A stretch of DNA of 64,000 bases from Candidatus Hodarchaeota archaeon (GTDB lineage Archaea > Asgardarchaeota > Lokiarchaeia > Sigyniarchaeales > SOKP01): NCBI GenBank assembly GCA_048886685.1, contig JBHLKM010000004.1, forward strand, positions 18,486 to 82,485, written 5' to 3'. Shown here in pieces: positions 27,964 to 40,056 of this stretch. Positions within the stretch are counted from its first letter, which is position 1; the number at the start of each line of letters is the position of its first letter. The translations under genes were made by a program, and so were the position numbers. The notes below the pieces were generated by a model, which saw nothing but the letters and a program-made list of their open reading frames with translations, was not told the origin of the DNA and ran no database searches.

Positions 27964-28815
27964 TTAAGCAGCAATAAATAATCTGCCGTTAGAACTATTT
28001 GAGATTTCTCCAGTTTTTTTATCAATTTTAGAATGGTTTTTTTCAACAGAATGGTCTCCGCTATATTCAATGAACTTTCCAGTTATTTTATCTCCATTCA
28101 TTAATTCGATTTCTTTTACTTCCCCAATTTTCTTATAAGATGGAAGTACTTTTGACACTTTACCTTTAACTACAATTGTTCCTCTGACTTGATCTGCGCC
28201 TACACATCGATTGCAGTCTCCTTCAACAATAATTGTCCCTCCATGACCGTGAATTCCTAAAAAAGATCCGGCGCTTCCACATATCAATGTTGGGAATCGG
28301 TTTCCAGGCTTTGAACCATTAACCCATGTTAAAGCTTCGTCACCTATTTTACCATGGACTTTTATTATTCCATTTTGCATTCCTTTCCAAAAACCTCTAT
28401 AAGCAGCACCAACATAATGACCTGCATTACCAGTAATCTCTAATTCACCACCATTTAACATTGCACCAGCCCAATCATCAGCATTCCCATTAACTGTTAT
28501 TTTACCACCTGTCATTTGATTGCCAACATGCATGCCTACATCTCCATTTACAAATATTTCACCCGCACTCATTTTTTCACCGATACGTTTAACGTTGGAA
28601 AGGTTACCATCTAATGTAATTTTCAAATCCGCTATTTCTCCCGATTTTCCAGATATATCAAAAAAATCGCCTAATATTTTTTCTTCATTACCATGAAAAA
28701 CAGTTAATTTCTTGATTTCCGCTAGAGTTTTCCCAGCGAATTGATCTGGACTAATAACATCTGCTTCTAAAGGAAATTCATGATCTTTTTTTAGTTTTAA
28801 TTTAATTTCTGTCAT
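27964..28815 (-). CDS. fwdC: Formylmethanofuran dehydrogenase subunit C
   Basis: PLEADVISPD, repeated GxxMxGGxIxVxG beta-helix. Confidence 0.92.
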   Translation of the reverse strand: MTEIKLKLKKDHEFPLEADVISPDQFAGKTLAEIKKLTVFHGNEEKILGDFFDISGKSGEIADLKITLDGNLSNVKRIGEKMSAGEIFVNGDVGMHVGNQMTGGKITVNGNADDWAGAMLNGGELEITGNAGHYVGAAYRGFWKGMQNGIIKVHGKIGDEALTWVNGSKPGNRFPTLICGSAGSFLGIHGHGGTIIVEGDCNRCVGADQVRGTIVVKGKVSKVLPSYKKIGEVKEIELMNGDKITGKFIEYSGDHSVEKNHSKIDKKTGEISNSSNGRLFIAA

Positions 28816-28818
28816 TGA

Positions 28819-30144
28819 TTACTCCCCCTTTTTCTTTTTTACAACCTCAATTAATCTTTCCAATATCTCTTTATCTGTTAAACATTCACCAGGAGCATCT
28901 TTTACTTTTCTCAATCTAAGAGGAACACTATCCATTCGATATGCTGTTCCTTCACATTCAATTCCAGCAATAGCAGGAGGCAATATAACATCCGCATTTA
29001 CAGAAGTTGGAGTATGATGAGGTTCAATTGAGATTAAAGGATGTTTAAACATATTTTTAACCGCTGCTGCTGGAAAATTGCTTGCAGGATCGGATGCTAC
29101 GATTAAAGAAGCGTCAATTTCATTTCTTATCAATACATCAACTGATGAGAATTCTCCGGGATTATATCGGGGATAACCTCTTGAAAAGTCAATAGAATAT
29201 GAATATCCTGTTTGCCATGAGAAAACTTGGTTTGCTCCAGCAACATTGTAATGTCCTCTCATCGGAGTTAACAAAAATTTAGTATAATCGTTTAATTCCC
29301 TTACCAAACAAATTGCCGCGTCGATATTTCTATGGTGGGAAAGAGATTGAGTTAATCCCATCCCGAAAAATATAACACCGAAATTACAAGATTTTAATTT
29401 ATTGACTAGTTCAATAATATTTTCCATAGGGACTCCTGAAACTTCTTCTCCATCCAATTCTGTGCCCCTAAGAATAGCTCTGATTGCATTAATTAGTTCG
29501 TAATCTTCACTTGGGTTTACTTGAACGAATAAATCCGCTATTTGAGCAGTGTGAGTGTTTCTTGGATCAACAACTATTATAAATCTATCATTTCTTCCAT
29601 CTTTTCTAAAATATCCTCTTACAAACTCACTGTATCTACCAAGATGTCTAGGATGAGCATGAACCGGATTACAACCCCAAAAAACTACAAGATCTGCCCT
29701 ATTCTTATATTCTCCTAATGTTGAGGTAGGGGCTCCAACATCTTGAATTGCTAATAATGATGGACCATGACATACAGAAGCAGTGTTATCTAATATAGCA
29801 CCTAAAACTTCTGCTAATTCTACTCCTTTACCTTGAGCTTCACATTCTGTACTAGAAAAACCATATAACAAGGGTCTTTTCGCTTCTATTAAAATATCTG
29901 CTGCTTTATTCAGTGCATCTTCCCACGATACTTCTTTATAAGACCCATTTTCCTTAATCAAGGGTTTTTCATATCGATGTTCACTAGGATTTGAGGCAAA
30001 GTATTTTTTTGTGCCTATTTGGCAACCATTTCTAACTTCTACCACTTTATTATCTTTAGTGTCAACATCTACTTCCAAATCATCGCATAAAGTTCCACAA
30101 AAAGGACAAACTACATCAGTTATTGTATTAATTTTTACTACCAT
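28819..30144 (-). CDS. fwdB: Formylmethanofuran dehydrogenase subunit B (Cys form)
   Basis: CPFCGTLCDD, TASVCHGP, WGCNPVHAHPRH, MRGHYNV, GTAYRMD. Confidence 0.95.
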   Translation of the reverse strand: MVVKINTITDVVCPFCGTLCDDLEVDVDTKDNKVVEVRNGCQIGTKKYFASNPSEHRYEKPLIKENGSYKEVSWEDALNKAADILIEAKRPLLYGFSSTECEAQGKGVELAEVLGAILDNTASVCHGPSLLAIQDVGAPTSTLGEYKNRADLVVFWGCNPVHAHPRHLGRYSEFVRGYFRKDGRNDRFIIVVDPRNTHTAQIADLFVQVNPSEDYELINAIRAILRGTELDGEEVSGVPMENIIELVNKLKSCNFGVIFFGMGLTQSLSHHRNIDAAICLVRELNDYTKFLLTPMRGHYNVAGANQVFSWQTGYSYSIDFSRGYPRYNPGEFSSVDVLIRNEIDASLIVASDPASNFPAAAVKNMFKHPLISIEPHHTPTSVNADVILPPAIAGIECEGTAYRMDSVPLRLRKVKDAPGECLTDKEILERLIEVVKKKKGE

Positions 30145-30146
30145 TC

Positions 30147-30542
30147 TTAAGCCCCCTTTAAAGTATTAATTAATTCCACGGCACCTAATACCTTACCATT
30201 TGGAATAGCTTCAACAGTTGCTTTCATACCTTTATAAGTTGGGGTTCCACAGGATTGCGAGTCGGGATTAACAACTTGATTTGCCCATGGTCCCATAGGA
30301 ATAAAAATAATCCCAGGATGAGGTCCTTCTTCCGAGATTGTAGAATATACTAAGACCTCTCCATAATCTGTAATAACCTTTACGGGGGTTCCTACAAGGC
30401 AATCCAATTTTTTAAAATCTTCCTTATCAAAAGCGCAGATTGCAGCTGCTCTTACGTTTTCTCTAGAGGTTTTTCCACCTTCAAGGGCGACCCCTTGATC
30501 AATGGTGCGGCAAGTAATCAAAATAAGATTATTTATAATCAT
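30147..30542 (-). CDS. fwdD: Formylmethanofuran dehydrogenase subunit D
   Basis: RTIDQG, FIPMGPWAN, GTPTYKG. Confidence 0.9.
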   Translation of the reverse strand: MIINNLILITCRTIDQGVALEGGKTSRENVRAAAICAFDKEDFKKLDCLVGTPVKVITDYGEVLVYSTISEEGPHPGIIFIPMGPWANQVVNPDSQSCGTPTYKGMKATVEAIPNGKVLGAVELINTLKGA

Positions 30543-30547
30543 TTTTT

Positions 30548-31279
30548 TTATTCTTCCTCCTTTTTTTCACTCCATCTTAAAGTTTTTAATCTCTTTAAAA
30601 GGGGTTCCCAGAACATTTCACTGAATTCTCCTGAAGTCTTTACATCAGTAATTTTCAGTTTTACTGCTCCTGTAGGACACCCATTATCGCAGGAGCCACA
30701 AAAGATACATTTTTCTTCGTCTACAACTACATTCGGGACTGTTTCCCAGCCTTTATCCGATTTTTCTGGAAGCGAAATTGCGAAAGATGGACAAACTTCA
30801 TAACAAGTTTGACATCCACCTGGACATTCTTCATCAACAATACTTATTTCTCCATCAGAATATTGTTTAGCGACTCTTTCAATCCCATTATAACTTGTAA
30901 CCTTCTTGGCTTCAAATTCTAGTTTAGGGACTACATTTTGAGCTACTATAGGAATATCATCAAGTTCTATAGTTTCTCCATCTTTTTTAAGAGTCAAAGC
31001 TGAAAAAGGACACATAATCACACAAGTTCCGCAAAAAACACATTTTTCGGGATCATAGACTTCTGGTATAATATCTTCCAGAGTTGGGAAACGACGGGAT
31101 GAACCAACGGGTCCTCGTGAAATAGCATCTTTAGGGCATACACGAGAACAGGTTCCGCACCCTACACATTTGGTTCTATCCAAAATTAATTCTAAACTTT
31201 CGATAAGAAATTGAACTTTAACATGTTCTACTTCTTTACTAATTGATCTTGAAATTTTAGGAAATGAAATTTTTTCCAC
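30548..31279 (-). CDS. Polyferredoxin (FwdF-like, four [4Fe-4S] motifs)
   Basis: Four CxxCxxCxxxCP-type motifs; located in the fwd operon. Confidence 0.8.
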   Translation of the reverse strand: MEKISFPKISRSISKEVEHVKVQFLIESLELILDRTKCVGCGTCSRVCPKDAISRGPVGSSRRFPTLEDIIPEVYDPEKCVFCGTCVIMCPFSALTLKKDGETIELDDIPIVAQNVVPKLEFEAKKVTSYNGIERVAKQYSDGEISIVDEECPGGCQTCYEVCPSFAISLPEKSDKGWETVPNVVVDEEKCIFCGSCDNGCPTGAVKLKITDVKTSGEFSEMFWEPLLKRLKTLRWSEKKEEE

Positions 31280-31823: not shown

Positions 31824-32966
31824 ATGGAATCTACAAAAAGTGAAGATTGCCTTATTTTTTACGCTTTAACTCCCGAGATTACTAAATTACGCCAAGTTTA
31901 TAATATAATAGGAGAATTTATGCAGAACAAGCAGTCTATTGATCCATCTGATAGATTTAATCTGATTTGGTTCCAAGATGATGGGCCAAATTATTTGGAT
32001 CATTTTACTTTTGATCCAGAATATATTTTAAAGACTTTAAAGTCATTAGGTAAAAAAATTACAAAAGCAAATATCGCAGGTGGGGTTTTTATCGCAATAA
32101 CTTTTATCATTGAAGTATTTAAGAAGATTTCTGAAAAGTTTTTTCGATTATTGATATTGGTTGACGATGGTGCTTACGAAATCCCTGATGAATATCTCCC
32201 AGCACTCGAAGAACTAATTAAAAAAGTCAAGGATATGCCCTTCTTTATTGATATTATCTTGATGGGAAGTCCCTATTCTGATCAAGCACAAAAATTATTG
32301 AAACTCGCAAATCTATCAAATGGAGACCTTTATGGAATCAAAAATATAAAGGATTTAAATCCAATCTTAACTGAATTATCAGAAAAAAAACGTGTTTCAG
32401 AGCCTTCATTTGTGAAACAACAATTGAGAATGATTCTACCCGATAACCAGCTATTTTACATAAATTTAGCTGATGACCCTGTTAGGGTGAATGAAATAGC
32501 AACATGTTCCATTTGTTTTCATAAAGATGATGAGGGTATAGTAAAGTGTCCCTCCTGTGATACTCCTGCCCACGATGTGTGTTGGGCACAATGGGCAGAT
32601 ACTTCTAATATCGGCATTCTACATGTCTTTAGATGCCATAATTGTTTCAACATACTGAAACTTGATAAAAATTATATAATGGATGTACAAGCAGGAAGAA
32701 TACCTACTATTGCTGAATTGATTAAAATGAAGAAAAGGAATATTATTGAATACTTGCATGAAATTGAATCGAAAAGTGAACCTAAAGTCATTCATACCGA
32801 AGATCCGATGGCTGTTGAAATACGAGCAATGGTAGAAGCAAGAAAGTTGCAACCTGAAGTTAAAAAGAGACGCAAAAAAGTTGCAGTAAATATTTGCCCT
32901 AATTGTAGCAAAATTATGATGGGGGATAGAAAAAACTGTCCTTCTTGTGGATTTGTCTTGTTTTAA
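31824..32966 (+). CDS. vWA domain + RING/PHD-like zinc finger + zinc ribbon protein
   Basis: DRFNLIWF, RLLILVDDG, LANLSNG (vWA); CSIC..CPSC..HDVC..CHNC; CPNC..CPSC. Confidence 0.7.
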   Translation: MESTKSEDCLIFYALTPEITKLRQVYNIIGEFMQNKQSIDPSDRFNLIWFQDDGPNYLDHFTFDPEYILKTLKSLGKKITKANIAGGVFIAITFIIEVFKKISEKFFRLLILVDDGAYEIPDEYLPALEELIKKVKDMPFFIDIILMGSPYSDQAQKLLKLANLSNGDLYGIKNIKDLNPILTELSEKKRVSEPSFVKQQLRMILPDNQLFYINLADDPVRVNEIATCSICFHKDDEGIVKCPSCDTPAHDVCWAQWADTSNIGILHVFRCHNCFNILKLDKNYIMDVQAGRIPTIAELIKMKKRNIIEYLHEIESKSEPKVIHTEDPMAVEIRAMVEARKLQPEVKKRRKKVAVNICPNCSKIMMGDRKNCPSCGFVLF

Positions 32967-33115: not shown

Positions 33116-34774
33116 ATGGATTCAAATATATTCACATTTCTTGTTGGCGGCAAAGCTGGTGAAGGGGTAAAGAAGGCTGGTTCTGTTGCTGCTCATATTT
33201 TTTCAAGCATGGGTCGTCATGTGTTCCAAATGGATGATTATATGAGTTTGATACGTGGTGGTCACAATTTCTCGGTTGTGAGTACTTCTCCTAGATGGAT
33301 TAGTAGCCATTATATGAAAGCGAATTTAGTAGTAAATTTTGATAAAAGAAGCTGTGAAATGCATGTGAATGATATCGCTGAAAATGGGGTTATAATTTAT
33401 AATTCTGATGAGCAAGAGCTTAAGAATGGTATTGGAATACCACTAACGTCAAAAGCAGAAAAATATCCGATGAAACCTTTAATGTATGGTGTTGGAGCTG
33501 TTGCCATATTATCCGCAACGATTGGTTTCGAAAAAGATCAAATGAACCAAATTATCAGTAGTGAATATCCTAGAGGAATAGAGGATAATATTAATTTTGC
33601 AAATTCCATTTATGATTTAGTAGTTCCTGATTGTGGAGCAAAATTCCCTTTAGAAAAAGGAGATAGGAAAAGATCAATCATTACAGGAAATGAAGCAATA
33701 AGCCTAGGAGCTATAGCTGGAGGTTTAGACGTGTATTATGGCTATCCCATGACTCCCGCATCGACAATCTTGCACACACTCGCTCGTGAAGCTGAGAATT
33801 TTGATTTAGCTGTTGTCCACGCTGAAAGTGAAATAGCAGTAATTAATATGGCAATCGGTTCATCTTTCACAGGAGCAAGAGCTATGGTTGGCACAAGTGG
33901 AGGAGGTTTTGCTCTTATGACCGAAGGTTTCTCTTTAGCAGGTATAACAGAAGCACCTGTTTTAGTTATATTATCTCAAAGACCAGGTCCAGCGACAGGT
34001 GTTCCCACTTACACAGAACAAGCTGATTTAGCTTTTGCTTTAACTGCGGGTCATGGAGATTTCTTAAGAATAGTTGCTTCCCCTAGAACAATTCGAGAGG
34101 CATATTATCTTACTGCTGAAATGTTAGGTCTAGTATGGAAGTTTCAAACACCAGGGATATTACTAACAGAAAAACACCTTTCAGAGAGTAGTATGACAGT
34201 TGAAATTGATTTAGAAAAATCAAAATGGGCAGAGCCAAAAATGCATAAGAACGGTGATTATAAGCGATATCTCGATACTAATGATGGAATTTCTCCTATG
34301 TTATTTCCTCCTTCAAAATCGATAATAAAATGGAATAGTTATGAACATGATGAATTTGGTATAACAACAGAAAATGCTGAGAAGATATCTTTTATGCATG
34401 ATAAAAGAAATAAGAAGTTAAAAACACTTATAGAATACCTAAAGGGACAAGAAACTGTTAAAATAATTCGTGGTGAAAATCCTACTAATATTTTCACGTA
34501 TGGATCAACTTATATGAGTGTTTTAGAAGCTCTTAGATATGGACATTTAAATCCTACAACTGTTGCACCAATATATTTGAGTCCATTACCCACATGGGAG
34601 CTCGAAGAATTTAAAAATCAAGATAATTTAGTAATTGAACAAAGTTCTACAGGACAATTTACTAAACTTTTGAAAGAAAAGGCGGGATTAAAGATAAGAA
34701 ACACAATTAAACAATATGATGGACGTCCATTTGATCCAATTGAGTTATCAAACAAAATTAAGGAGGTGCTCTAA
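33116..34774 (+). CDS. 2-oxoacid:ferredoxin oxidoreductase alpha subunit (gamma-alpha fusion)
   Basis: GGKAGEG, SLIRGGHN, YPMTPAS, ESEIA, GTSGGGFALM, QRPGPATG. Confidence 0.92.
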   Translation: MDSNIFTFLVGGKAGEGVKKAGSVAAHIFSSMGRHVFQMDDYMSLIRGGHNFSVVSTSPRWISSHYMKANLVVNFDKRSCEMHVNDIAENGVIIYNSDEQELKNGIGIPLTSKAEKYPMKPLMYGVGAVAILSATIGFEKDQMNQIISSEYPRGIEDNINFANSIYDLVVPDCGAKFPLEKGDRKRSIITGNEAISLGAIAGGLDVYYGYPMTPASTILHTLAREAENFDLAVVHAESEIAVINMAIGSSFTGARAMVGTSGGGFALMTEGFSLAGITEAPVLVILSQRPGPATGVPTYTEQADLAFALTAGHGDFLRIVASPRTIREAYYLTAEMLGLVWKFQTPGILLTEKHLSESSMTVEIDLEKSKWAEPKMHKNGDYKRYLDTNDGISPMLFPPSKSIIKWNSYEHDEFGITTENAEKISFMHDKRNKKLKTLIEYLKGQETVKIIRGENPTNIFTYGSTYMSVLEALRYGHLNPTTVAPIYLSPLPTWELEEFKNQDNLVIEQSSTGQFTKLLKEKAGLKIRNTIKQYDGRPFDPIELSNKIKEVL

Positions 34775-34778
34775 TAAA

Positions 34779-35618
34779 ATGGAAGACCTTAAAACTTATG
34801 CTGAAATTACTTGGTGTCCTGGCTGTGGAAATTTTGGGATCTTTACAGCTGTAAGAAATGCAATCCCTCTTTTAGAGGAAAAAGGTATCAAAAGAGATAA
34901 TATTGTAATAACGTCGGGTATAGGCTGTCATGCAAAAATATTTGATTATCTTAATTTAAGCGGTTTTTATGGATTACATGGGCGTAATTGTTCAAATTCT
35001 GAAGGTATAAAAATTGCGAATCCGGATTTGAAAGTAATTAACTTTTCAGGGGACGCTAATGGATTGGCAGAAGGATTAGCACATACTATATTTGCAGCAA
35101 AAAGAAATCAAGATATAACATTTATTTTACATAATAACAGTGTTTATGCTCTCACAACAGGTCAATTCTCTCCATTGGCAGAAAAAGGATGGAGAGGACC
35201 CTCCACTCCAAGGGGAAGCTACGAGGAACCATTTAATCCAATGTCTTTAATGATTGAAGCAGGAGCCACTTTCGTAGCAAGAGGTTTTGCTGGTGATACA
35301 AAGCATCTCACAGATCTCATAGTACAAGGTGTAGAACACGAAGGATTCGCTTTCATAGAAGTCTTACAACCTGCCGTTCCTTACCATAAGTGGGAAGAAT
35401 ATAGAGAGCATGTTGAATATCTTGAAAAAGAACCAGAGAATTATTTTGAAGCCATTAAGGTAACTAAAGAAAATCATAAGTTTACAATAGGAATATTTTA
35501 TAGAACAACAAGACCAGTTTATCATAAAGAGTTATATGGAAATCATAACCCTATTACTAAAAAATTATCACGGGATACACGAATTGAAAAAATTCGAAAA
35601 ATTCTTGAATCTGAATAA
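34779..35618 (+). CDS. 2-oxoacid:ferredoxin oxidoreductase beta subunit
   Basis: TWCPGCGNFG, SGIGC, LHGR, GDAN..HNN TPP motif; probable start 34779 after AGGAGGTG Shine-Dalgarno (34761-34768). Confidence 0.92.
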   Translation: MEDLKTYAEITWCPGCGNFGIFTAVRNAIPLLEEKGIKRDNIVITSGIGCHAKIFDYLNLSGFYGLHGRNCSNSEGIKIANPDLKVINFSGDANGLAEGLAHTIFAAKRNQDITFILHNNSVYALTTGQFSPLAEKGWRGPSTPRGSYEEPFNPMSLMIEAGATFVARGFAGDTKHLTDLIVQGVEHEGFAFIEVLQPAVPYHKWEEYREHVEYLEKEPENYFEAIKVTKENHKFTIGIFYRTTRPVYHKELYGNHNPITKKLSRDTRIEKIRKILESE

Positions 35619-37258: not shown

Positions 37259-38545
37259 ATGAAAGATTTGAGAAAAAAGTTAGAAATCCCAAAAGATGCT
37301 TTAAAATCTGTGAATGATTTTTTACTTGATCAGAATAATCCTTTAATTAACAATTTATTGACTGTATTAGATAAATATGGTGGTATTGAAGAAATTAATA
37401 AAAAAGCACGAGAAGCTAGTAAATTAGATAACTTAATCAATAAATTAGCTAAGAAGAATTCTGATCATGTTAAGGATATTGAGTGGCTTATAAAGGCTCG
37501 AGATGACCATTCTTTTATTAATATTAAAGAATATAGAAAAAAAATCTTAGGAGAAAAAGCTTTAGAAATGAAATTCAATGACGATTATGCTGTTACTTTA
37601 GAATTATCAGCTTGTCAATATTTTCCCTTTTTGATTGATATCGCAAAAAATGCAATAGAAAACCAGAAACTAGTTCCAGGAAGAATTATTCGAGTAAGAA
37701 GAATGAAGGAGCAAGAAGAAGATGGAGATTTATTAGCAATGACTGCCGCTATGCAAATTATTGGGTCAACCTGGGTAGAAACGCTCGATACGAAAGGCAC
37801 GGCTCCAGGTCCAGATGGAATGCCTGTGAATGTGCATCTAGGAGGCCCGGATACGATTACTGGATATTTTGGAGGAGTTGGACAGCCTAATGATTTTGCC
37901 TTAAAGTGGATTGATGAATATCTTTATTATTATACTAATTATGGTATAAAGCAAGTACTTAATGTTAATCCTGGAACTGTTCTTTTAGGTTATTTTATTT
38001 ATAAACTAGGGATTAATAATGAATTTAAAATTAGTGTATACATGGGGAATGACAATCCTTATTCTTGTTTATGGACACTCCTAACTGCTAAATTATTTGC
38101 TCGAGAAGATGGAAGTAGCCCTTTAATTGGATTTAATTTATCAAATGCAGTAAATAATGAAACTATAGAGATGGCTGCATATATTCGAAAACCATTTGGT
38201 TTTGAAGATGTTATTAGATTAGAGCATCATATAACAGAGACTTGGAAGAGTATAGTAAGACAACCCTATGACCGAAGAGATGAATTGTTAGAGTTAGCAA
38301 AAAAGGTAAAAAATATAAGTGCTAAACATGAAGGTGGAAACGTAGAAGTCGATGGGAAAAGAGAACATCCTACAGATATTCTTGAATACTTTATGCCTAA
38401 AGAAGAATTAAAACAAGCAGGTTTGTGGGATTATTTAAGAATTAATCATTTAGATCGATATGAAGCAGTAAATTCAACCGCAGAAACTCTTACTAAAAAT
38501 GGATTATCATTTATTGCTGCAAATGAATTACATCACTATGAATAA
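37259..38545 (+). CDS. Enzyme-like hypothetical protein, likely co-transcribed with the aldolase-Fae gene
   Basis: 428-aa ORF; Gly/His/Glu-rich motifs (VHLGGPDTITGYFGG, LEHHITE, AKHEGG); 20-bp gap to the next gene. Confidence 0.75.
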   Translation: MKDLRKKLEIPKDALKSVNDFLLDQNNPLINNLLTVLDKYGGIEEINKKAREASKLDNLINKLAKKNSDHVKDIEWLIKARDDHSFINIKEYRKKILGEKALEMKFNDDYAVTLELSACQYFPFLIDIAKNAIENQKLVPGRIIRVRRMKEQEEDGDLLAMTAAMQIIGSTWVETLDTKGTAPGPDGMPVNVHLGGPDTITGYFGGVGQPNDFALKWIDEYLYYYTNYGIKQVLNVNPGTVLLGYFIYKLGINNEFKISVYMGNDNPYSCLWTLLTAKLFAREDGSSPLIGFNLSNAVNNETIEMAAYIRKPFGFEDVIRLEHHITETWKSIVRQPYDRRDELLELAKKVKNISAKHEGGNVEVDGKREHPTDILEYFMPKEELKQAGLWDYLRINHLDRYEAVNSTAETLTKNGLSFIAANELHHYE

Positions 38546-38565
38546 AATATTGAGGTAAAAATATC

Positions 38566-40056
38566 ATGGGTAAATTTAATTTTAGACCTACTGGGGTAAT
38601 GCCTGCATTAGTTACACCATTTAATAAAACTGATGAGTCCATTAATGAGGAAAATTTGAGAAATTTAGTAAATCATCTTATTGAACAAGGAGTCACAGGT
38701 CTTGTACCCGTTGGAACTACTGGTGAATTTGTGAATATGAATTTTGAGGAACGTCTGAAAGTAATAGAAATTGTAGTTGATGAAACGAATGGCCGAGTTC
38801 CAGTTATTGCGGGAACAGGAGAAACAGGGACTAAATTAGTAATAGAAGCTACTAAAGCGGCAACTGATATTGGTGCAGATGCTGTATTAATTGTAACACC
38901 CTATTACTTAAAGCCCAAGGCAAAAGGTTTATACGATCATTATTATACTATTACAGAAAAAACGGATATTCCTATTGTTTTATATAACATTCCTGCTTGT
39001 ACTGGAGTGGAATTGCCATGGACGGTTGTAGAAGATTTAGTTGATATCGAGAATTTCGTAGCGATAAAAGATTCGAGTGGAGATTACAAATATTTTTCGG
39101 CATTATTAGAAAAAGTAAGTGATAAGATCTCAGTTTTGATTGGATGGGATGAAAATGTATTGGGGGCTTTAGCAGGAGGTGCTGCAGGCTGCATTCTAGG
39201 CTCTGCAAATGTATTTCCAAAAATATGGCTTGAAATATATGAACATGTGAAAAATAATCGTTTAGAAGAGGCACAGATACTACAGAAAAAAGTACAAAAA
39301 TTAGCAAGACTATTAATAAATTCTGGAGCATTAGGAGTAAAATCATGTTTGAATATGATGAAAATTCCAGTAGGGACTACACGTCAACCATTAGTACTTG
39401 GTGACGCGCTCTCTTATGAGATTAAAGATGAATTACGCGTAGAACTTGAAAAATTAGGATTAATTAAAAAAACAGAAATCCAATTTGAATTTGGAGAAAA
39501 GCCACTTACAAGTCGTTTTTACGCAGTTGGTATTACTCCTCAGAAAATCACTGATTTTGAACTAAAAGTAGGGGAATCTCTTGTAGGGGATCGTGCAGAA
39601 CTTGCTCATATCGATCTCCTAATTGGCCGAAAAAATGGACCTGTTGGTAATGCATATGCTCAAGCTTTAACAAATCCAGAAGAAGGACGTGAAGGGCTTC
39701 AGGTCATTCTAGAACCAAATATGCAAGTTAAACCACCAACAATTATGATTCCCACTGTACGTCCAACTTCTCTTCGTCATGCTAGCCTTACTTATGGTCC
39801 TGCCCAAGCGGCTATTGCTAAAGCTGTTATGCAATGTGTTGAAGATGGAATTCTCCCAAAAGAATTAGCTAATGATATAGTTCTAATTGTAAATGTTTTT
39901 GTTCATCCTAGTGCTAGTGCAAGAAAAAGAATTTTTATCAATAATTATAAGGCAACTCGAAATGCAATCCGAAAAGCAATGGAAGGCTTACCAACAGTAA
40001 ATGATGGAATAAAGAACGCAGAAAATGCACGGCATCCTTTTAGGAATGATCCTTAA
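38566..40056 (+). CDS. DapA/NAL-family class I aldolase fused to formaldehyde-activating enzyme (Fae)
   Basis: aa 1-300: ALVTPF, GTTGE, YNIP, IKDSSG Schiff-base Lys; aa about 331-496: VGESLVG, HIDLLIG, VKPPT, GPAQAAIAKAV, NYKAT, HPF. Confidence 0.9.
   Translation: MGKFNFRPTGVMPALVTPFNKTDESINEENLRNLVNHLIEQGVTGLVPVGTTGEFVNMNFEERLKVIEIVVDETNGRVPVIAGTGETGTKLVIEATKAATDIGADAVLIVTPYYLKPKAKGLYDHYYTITEKTDIPIVLYNIPACTGVELPWTVVEDLVDIENFVAIKDSSGDYKYFSALLEKVSDKISVLIGWDENVLGALAGGAAGCILGSANVFPKIWLEIYEHVKNNRLEEAQILQKKVQKLARLLINSGALGVKSCLNMMKIPVGTTRQPLVLGDALSYEIKDELRVELEKLGLIKKTEIQFEFGEKPLTSRFYAVGITPQKITDFELKVGESLVGDRAELAHIDLLIGRKNGPVGNAYAQALTNPEEGREGLQVILEPNMQVKPPTIMIPTVRPTSLRHASLTYGPAQAAIAKAVMQCVEDGILPKELANDIVLIVNVFVHPSASARKRIFINNYKATRNAIRKAMEGLPTVNDGIKNAENARHPFRNDP

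Follow-up and report, generated by a model that had tools for sequence, protein, structure and literature searches.

One gene in the window (the whole stretch of 64,000 nucleotides analyzed here) joins a DapA-type aldolase domain to a formaldehyde-activating enzyme (Fae) domain, which raises the question of what reaction would employ both. A sequence-only reading had described a single 496-residue frame, a description borne out by the open reading frame, Pfam, and TIGR03126 (Table 1). Pfam matches DHDPS (PF00701) with 257 bits and Fae (PF08714) with 188 bits, the latter over model positions 1-158 of 159, and the Fae model TIGR03126 covers the full-length domain with 186 bits against a cut-off of 118. 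The AlphaFold model (pLDDT 85) comprises a DHDPS-type barrel, which matches 2yxg and 3noe with a TM-score of 0.95 (by target), and a separate C-terminal alpha/beta domain. A match to 8ub7 ("Avd") is apparently to an engineered construct with the same Fae sequence as 1y5y and represents no natural relative.

Table 1. Features of the locus, with positions in the window
Feature	Positions	Strand	Basis or remark
Aldolase-Fae fusion gene, P0001	38566..40056	+	One open frame, 496 codons, no stop; Pfam, homologues, AlphaFold model
DapA/NAL-family class I pyruvate aldolase domain, aa 8-294	38587..39447	+	Pfam, alignment, tree
Fae domain, aa 335-492	39568..40041	+	Pfam, alignment
TIM-barrel protein gene, P0122, 428 aa, no family name	37259..38545	+	20 bp upstream of fusion gene
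Gap of 20 bp with GAGGT ribosome-binding-like element, between barrel gene and fusion gene	38546..38565	+	
fwdF-like, fwdD, fwdB, fwdC	27964..31279	-	Context; outside the two-gene unit

Both Pfam domains are present in all of the 120 best homologues (84-100% identical), which come mostly from Promethearchaeota and, where named, are called 4-hydroxy-tetrahydrodipicolinate synthase in the databases. Full-length fusions are 75-95% identical to P0001 within its home family and 39-55% identical in eight other families of the phylum; outside the phylum, they occur in records labelled Korarchaeota/Thermoproteota, Anaerolineae, and Bathyarchaeia. The fusion thus ranges widely over Asgard archaea and Bathyarchaeia and also occurs in some bacteria. 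Its absence from relatives, which the sequence-only reading had named as an outcome that would speak against it, is not what is found, and an assembly artefact is ruled out by the two-domain homologues and the more distant full-length fusions. The labels of two loci, L116 (DATKTW010000104.1, Nanopelagicaceae) and L152 (DATKZI010000011.1, Bathyarchaeia), may be binning or naming errors, because their identity level and gene order match those of Asgard loci.

The aldolase domain has the PF00701 barrel, the GxxGE motif, the catalytic Tyr, and the Schiff-base Lys that define the DapA/NAL superfamily of class I pyruvate aldolases. The motifs picked out earlier fall where they were placed, with GTTGE at residues 50-54 and with Tyr140 and the Schiff-base Lys168 aligned to Tyr133 and Lys161 of E. 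coli DapA; Thr51, Thr52, Phe55, Tyr114, Gly193, and Asp195 complete the site. The protein also passes the DHDPS model TIGR00674 (244.7 against a cut-off of 206.15), which accounts for the DapA label in databases, and its best PDB matches are DHDPS enzymes, at up to 40% identity. Taken at face value, these scores would make it a second DHDPS that carries Fae as a passenger, in line with the database label. In DHDPS, however, Arg138 and Asn248 bind aspartate semialdehyde, and both are replaced here: the earlier claim that the Arg is missing holds, since Arg138 of E. coli DapA aligns to Cys145, and Gly254 stands at the position of Asn248. Among 41 fusion aldolases, none keeps Arg138, 40 have Phe for Ser48, and 36 have Gly for Asn248. 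In a quick, midpoint-rooted tree of 108 sequences that left out HOGA and archaeal KDG aldolases, the 41 fusion aldolases form their own clade (SH-aLRT 98), separate from the DapA clade (SH-aLRT 97), and the clustering with true DHDPS that had been considered does not appear. The genome has three PF00701 genes. Its canonical dapA, whose presence the sequence-only reading had left to be checked, scores 351 bits on TIGR00674, keeps YNVPSRT, adjoins dapB and lysA, and is 34% identical to the aldolase domain of the fusion, which does not lie beside dapB; the fusion is also present in many genomes without an Asd match. Because of the separate dapA-dapB-lysA cluster, the clade of its own, and the missing Arg138, the fusion aldolase is, by its sequence, a different enzyme from the lysine enzyme DapA, as had been claimed, and a second DHDPS is very improbable.

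Phe at the Ser48 position and a residue other than Arg at 138 are common to the fusion and to YagE/YjhH. The fusion aldolases do not group with YagE/YjhH in the quick tree, and no sugar-acid dehydratase lies beside the fusion in the fusion and barrel loci surveyed. A separate 694-aa fusion (L008:7144-9228, minus strand, the same locus as G000:C16:26143-28227) combines a degenerate DapA-family barrel (67 bits, with no clear GTTGE or Schiff-base motif) with an APH/fructosamine-kinase-like domain.

Fae condenses formaldehyde with tetrahydromethanopterin (H4MPT), and its hallmarks are the catalytic His and the following Asp of the AHIDL motif, GPAQ, and a C-terminal HPF. The fusion keeps His348, which aligns, as proposed earlier, to the His of AHIDL in M. 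extorquens Fae (1y5y), as well as Asp350, Leu378, Glu383-Pro384, Gly411-Pro412, Gln414, His447, Asn460, and the C-terminal HPF. The Fae domain had been described as full, and its predicted site looks functional, with all site residues kept in 19 of 19 single fusions. One family (f8), two other families, and several lineages outside the phylum have tandem pairs of the fusion. Their first copies keep Leu378, Glu383-Pro384, and Gly411-Pro412 (21 of 21) and have lost His348, Asp350, the HPF tail, and, in nearly all, His447; the second copies keep the His348, Asp350, His447, and HPF set (21 of 21) and have lost the other. The aldolase Tyr is kept in both copies, as is the Lys with one exception. 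Since tandem copies keep complementary halves and single fusions keep all, we infer that the Fae site is built between two subunits and is still under selection.

One Fae residue departs from this pattern. Where M. extorquens Fae and the Fae-Hps of this genome have a conserved Lys, presumably a pterin contact (position 71 in M. extorquens numbering), P0001 has Thr397; of 19 single fusions, 16 have Thr here and three have Lys. The carrier or the adduct may therefore differ. The exchange, the identity of only 41% between this Fae domain and that of the genome's own Fae-Hps, and the resemblance of the aldolase site to KDG-type aldolases would suit a released aldehyde other than formaldehyde, such as glyoxylate (from 4-hydroxy-2-oxoglutarate) or glycolaldehyde, with the altered Fae domain binding another adduct or acting as a sensor or scaffold. 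Such a role fits poorly with site residues (His348, Asp350, His447, Asn460, and others) that are invariant in single fusions and divided between tandem copies.

The Fae-Hps gene that the sequence-only reading had suggested looking for lies at C3:305856-307142 (520 bits). P0001 itself falls outside that family, scoring 151 on NF009833 against a cut-off of 274, through its Fae part alone. Archaeal Fae-Hps (NF009833; Mhun1628, PMC5241800) resembles it in fusing a reversible formaldehyde aldolase to Fae and in linking a C-C reaction to methylene-H4MPT. The present fusion differs in that its aldolase is a Schiff-base pyruvate aldolase of the DapA family, placed N-terminal to Fae, in the exchange of Lys for Thr, and in the occurrence of subfunctionalized tandem pairs.

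We compared 72 hand-picked genomes, in which kin are not independent and absence means not found in partly incomplete genomes; because of this choice of genomes and their kinship, Fisher p-values were given no weight. The fusion is present in 33 of these, all with a long or short form of the barrel gene that lies upstream of it here; 11 have a barrel without the fusion, and 28 have neither. Mch was found in 32 of the 33 fusion genomes of this hand-picked panel but in none of the 11 with the barrel alone. By this strict link, the distribution of the fusion matches H4MPT as carrier, which also argues against an aldehyde other than formaldehyde. Mtd, Mch, Ftr, and Fwd are all present in this genome. 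The fwd operon that the sequence-only reading had cited does show an H4MPT/methanofuran pathway in the organism, but no fwd-like cluster recurs at the 40 other fusion loci examined. Two Ftr-family genes (C3:114496 and C6:106573) were found in this genome, for which contamination is 8.4%. The window also encodes a 380-aa protein (31824-32966, plus strand) with weak matches to prokaryotic RING and double zinc ribbon domains, followed downstream by a 2-oxoacid:acceptor oxidoreductase alpha/beta pair (33116-35618).

The constant genomic partner of the fusion is the TIM-barrel gene upstream of it. In 63 of 80 genome loci, the fusion comes after the barrel, and each of the 33 fusion genomes of the hand-picked panel has a long or a short form of the barrel, never both; 14 home-family genomes of several genera have neither barrel nor fusion. 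The long, 428-aa barrel P0122 has at least 8000 homologues and no match in Pfam or NCBIfam. Its model (pLDDT 84) is a TIM barrel, for which Foldseek returns TIM barrels only, none at E 0.001, and PDB structural matches are tied at Z 11-12, among them the U32 protein Mk0906 (5d88, Z 11.0). It matches an Atlas cluster with a TM-score of 0.74 (by target), 23% of whose members have PF01136; an Atlas feature search gave weak unrelated matches only. A short, 315-aa "U32-like" family, also without a Pfam match, replaces the long barrel as neighbor of the fusion in five families and lies 5' of it on three metagenome contigs, one of them labelled Bathyarchaeia. For the short barrel, the top feature match is the same Atlas cluster that the long one matches best in structure, and hhalign aligns the two over 252 columns (E 8.5e-5), two lysine motifs included; the families are distant homologues. 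Kinship with the U32 family is possible, as the partner is likewise a TIM barrel and its short form matches a cluster that partly carries PF01136. It differs from U32 in having neither a Pfam match nor a conserved cysteine set (no PF01136 match or Fe-S cysteine motif in the barrels, and no invariant Cys in the two family alignments) and in its two conserved lysines, Lys257 and Lys356. A predicted complex of fusion and barrel scored 0.00, which is uninformative either way. On the other side of the fusion, an old-yellow-enzyme-family oxidoreductase gene lies directly 3' in six of 63 loci (L090:9805-10944 and five other home-family loci) and is absent from the window.

What the fusion does is best judged from what takes its place beside the barrel. 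We counted modules at 80 metagenome loci of the long barrel: a PanB-type gene is adjacent in 21, a homoserine dehydrogenase (Hom) gene occurs in 22, the fusion in nine, another DapA-family aldolase in one, and none of these in 27, many of which are short contigs; no locus has two modules at once. In a complete 4.36-Mb genome without Fae, the barrel follows a different stand-alone DapA-family protein. Most of the 22 Hom loci also have an aldehyde:ferredoxin oxidoreductase (AOR) and an aminotransferase, and at Hodarchaeales- and Heimdallarchaeia-labelled loci the order is barrel, aminotransferase, Hom (429 bits against a cut-off of 373), AOR. Several of the PanB-type genes lie behind an Lrp regulator or before an aminotransferase, and no panC was found in the 21 metagenome loci with a barrel-linked PanB. 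PanB passes a hydroxymethyl group from a 2-oxo acid to tetrahydrofolate (THF) or back. That it serves as an alternative module points to one-carbon transfer and counts against release of another aldehyde by the fusion, which is quite improbable overall.

A single compound would join all modules, 4-hydroxy-2-oxobutanoate (HOB), because the chemistries of PanB, of aminotransferase with Hom, and of pyruvate aldolases meet there. In engineered E. coli, homoserine is transaminated to HOB, which PanB then splits into pyruvate and methylene-THF (PMC6966089), and aminotransferases can convert homoserine to HOB and back (PMC6966089; PMC8879981); HOB is also formed from formaldehyde by pyruvate aldolases, for which this is a side activity (PMC8879981; 10.1101/2025.02.17.638773). 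The published pathway is synthetic, and HOB has been termed non-natural (PMC6966089, reviewing Bouzon et al. 2017); in the literature found, its interconversion with pyruvate and a one-carbon unit is described for engineered pathways only. Judged by gene context, HOB is probably the metabolite common to the three modules, and interconversion of HOB with pyruvate and a one-carbon unit, as proposed in the sequence-only reading, is the best supported reading by both the module swap and the barrel context. It is limited by the hand-picked panel, the relatedness of the genomes, and the 27 of 80 loci without a module, and the fact that HOB activity of PanB, RhmA, GarL, and similar enzymes is known as a side activity only counts against it.

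Aldolase and Fae might instead be coupled on another hydroxymethyl 2-oxo acid, such as ketopantoate/ketoisovalerate or a keto acid derived from a sugar acid. The barrel-linked PanB-type genes do score above the cut-off for canonical panB (four tested, with 290-335 bits on TIGR00222), and short-barrel homologues in Thermomicrobium lie beside sugar-transport, enolase-family, and lactonase-like genes. Yet panC is missing near these PanB genes, and a Hom above its cut-off points to an unbranched C4 skeleton; we regard this alternative as unlikely. A role as ketopantoate-making substitute for PanB is ruled out, because PanB is equally common with the fusion (23 of 33) and without it (28 of 39) and is present once in this genome. 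In the pocket of barrel-linked PanB, Leu replaces Val179, Leu replaces Ile212, and Ile replaces Val214 (17 of 17); we left these residues out of the argument, as the canonical PanB 1o66 also has Leu at 179, and no paper on this pocket was found in the literature searched.

HOB is the substrate that we favor for the fusion. The protein is then a probable H4MPT-dependent 2-oxo-acid hydroxymethyltransferase that interconverts HOB with pyruvate and methylene-H4MPT. The aldolase domain would bind HOB as a Schiff base on Lys168 and cleave it to pyruvate and formaldehyde; the Fae domain would condense the formaldehyde, perhaps channeled between the two sites, with H4MPT; and the resulting methylene-H4MPT would be oxidized by Mtd, Mch, Ftr, and Fwd. 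Acting with H4MPT, the fusion would be the counterpart of a PanB-type enzyme acting with THF. Its net reaction would equal that of PanB in the engineered HOB pathway (Bouzon et al. 2017, in PMC6966089), and PanB-type genes stand in for it beside the same barrel gene. In contrast to PanB, it is an unrelated enzyme, would use H4MPT rather than THF, and would have two active sites with formaldehyde between them. By analogy, its design would be that of Fae-Hps and its net chemistry that of PanB, while it belongs to neither DHDPS nor Fae-Hps. The HOB aldolases of the synthetic homoserine cycle (RhmA, GarL, and the DapA-family YjhH, screened in 10.1101/2025.02.17.638773) likewise join pyruvate and formaldehyde to HOB, but as a side activity of sugar-acid aldolases, and the fusion clade is separate from YagE/YjhH.

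Neither the fusion nor a natural HOB pathway was found in the titles and abstracts searched, which came mostly from open-access literature. If the assignment is right, the fusion would serve as a natural aldolase dedicated to HOB and as a keto-acid hydroxymethyltransferase that depends on H4MPT, and a reaction designed for synthetic one-carbon metabolism would exist in nature. It would also correct the DapA label common in databases for Asgard archaea and Bathyarchaeia, and, in the lineages nearest to eukaryotes, it would tie amino-acid carbon to the H4MPT pathway by a link not recognized before. The synthetic homoserine cycle would gain direct candidates for its HOB step in the dedicated aldolase and the barrel-linked PanB paralogues, and the module swap would narrow the function of a large, nameless barrel family to one reaction node.

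Given HOB as substrate, net cleavage is mildly favored over synthesis. All nine barrel-without-fusion genomes that have Hom are without an Asd match, and Hom there more plausibly runs toward aspartate semialdehyde, with AOR finishing to aspartate; one group of Hom-module loci adjoins a 2-oxoacid:ferredoxin oxidoreductase and a succinate-CoA-ligase-like enzyme. Since AOR can also reduce acids, the absence of Asd is no proof of an oxidative direction, and the proposed steps are reversible, which counts against a fixed direction of cleavage. This genome has Asd, Hom beside ThrC, two HcyBio-family genes (C2:139981 and C1:379820), and dapAB-lysA, and it therefore needs no second source of homoserine.

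The reverse flux is a sub-case of the HOB assignment, in which pyruvate and methylene-H4MPT would give HOB and then homoserine and threonine or, via the barrel, for instance, a methionine skeleton from methanethiol. It would explain why Hom is rarer in the fusion genomes of the hand-picked panel (nine of 33) than in the others (29 of 39), and it would suit the 14 fusion genomes with neither Hom nor Asd, the missing HcyBio in most lineages outside the home family, and the ThrC-like gene found close to the barrel in family f8. The HcyBio pattern is uninformative for direction, because every barrel-less genome of the panel used for it belongs to a single family. Biosynthesis is harder to reconcile with this genome, which keeps the fusion beside Asd, Hom, ThrC, and HcyBio, with the Hom module, which occurs without Asd and with AOR, and with the absence of thrB from 58 of 59 genomes. 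Moreover, among seven Hom-less fusion genomes of the home order, five have no ThrC match at 1e-50, one has a weaker paralogue only, and one has the Hom-type ThrC gene. Net synthesis is thus somewhat unlikely. Replacement of Hom for threonine synthesis is weakened as well, in that Hom-type ThrC mostly disappears together with Hom and is not retained where the fusion is. Canonical homoserine kinase (thrB) was found in one of 59 genomes of the phylum, many of which have Hom beside ThrC; its scarcity is a missing step in Asgard threonine synthesis. No genome passed the cut-off for methionine gamma-lyase (TIGR01328), and none was found at 1e-60 in this genome, a pattern that is uninformative.

The weakest step of the proposed pathway concerns the barrel, which we propose as the source (or consumer) of HOB. 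The enzyme may supply HOB by removing the C4 substituent of a 2-oxobutanoate; with its two conserved lysines, it could eliminate the substituent and add water. The simplest candidate substrate, for organisms that ferment peptides, is the keto acid of methionine, a guess that we hold loosely. A PatB C-S lyase in some barrel operons and a homocysteine methyltransferase-like neighbor in three loci weakly hint at it, while betaine transport and demethylation genes at two loci and sugar-acid genes near the short family hint at other substrates. As a serious though tentative possibility, HOB may be the hub of a widespread natural pathway in anaerobic sediment microbes, made by the barrel, possibly from the methionine keto acid, with methanethiol set free, and consumed by any of three modules that can replace one another: the aldolase-Fae fusion (H4MPT), a PanB paralogue (THF), or Hom with AOR (to aspartate).

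Other neighborhoods of the barrel vary. In family f8 (L167-L178 and L161), the barrel gene lies apart from the fusion pair, directly after an ECF transporter S component, and a ThrC-like gene is near it in six of 12 loci; this genome has a similar pair of ECF-S and ThrC-like genes at C5:57372-59212. At L234:5992-12922 and L241:153-6506, the barrel is followed by a carnitine/betaine-type BCCT transporter, an Fe-S-like protein, and a CoA-transferase-like gene; the L234 locus also has an MttB-family methyltransferase, and L241 has PanB upstream. A Polaromonas plasmid (CP087967.1, L275:5720-11257) carries a barrel of the long family (51% identity), in whose vicinity lie a DapA-like gene, an Ldh-family oxidoreductase, an iron alcohol dehydrogenase, and a succinate-semialdehyde dehydrogenase. 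On an Enterobacter plasmid (NZ_CP097174.1, L278:6901-15864), a short-family barrel lies in an apparent small-molecule biosynthetic cluster with a phosphotransferase, an oxidoreductase, an aminotransferase, an iron-containing redox enzyme, an M14 peptidase, and an MFS exporter.
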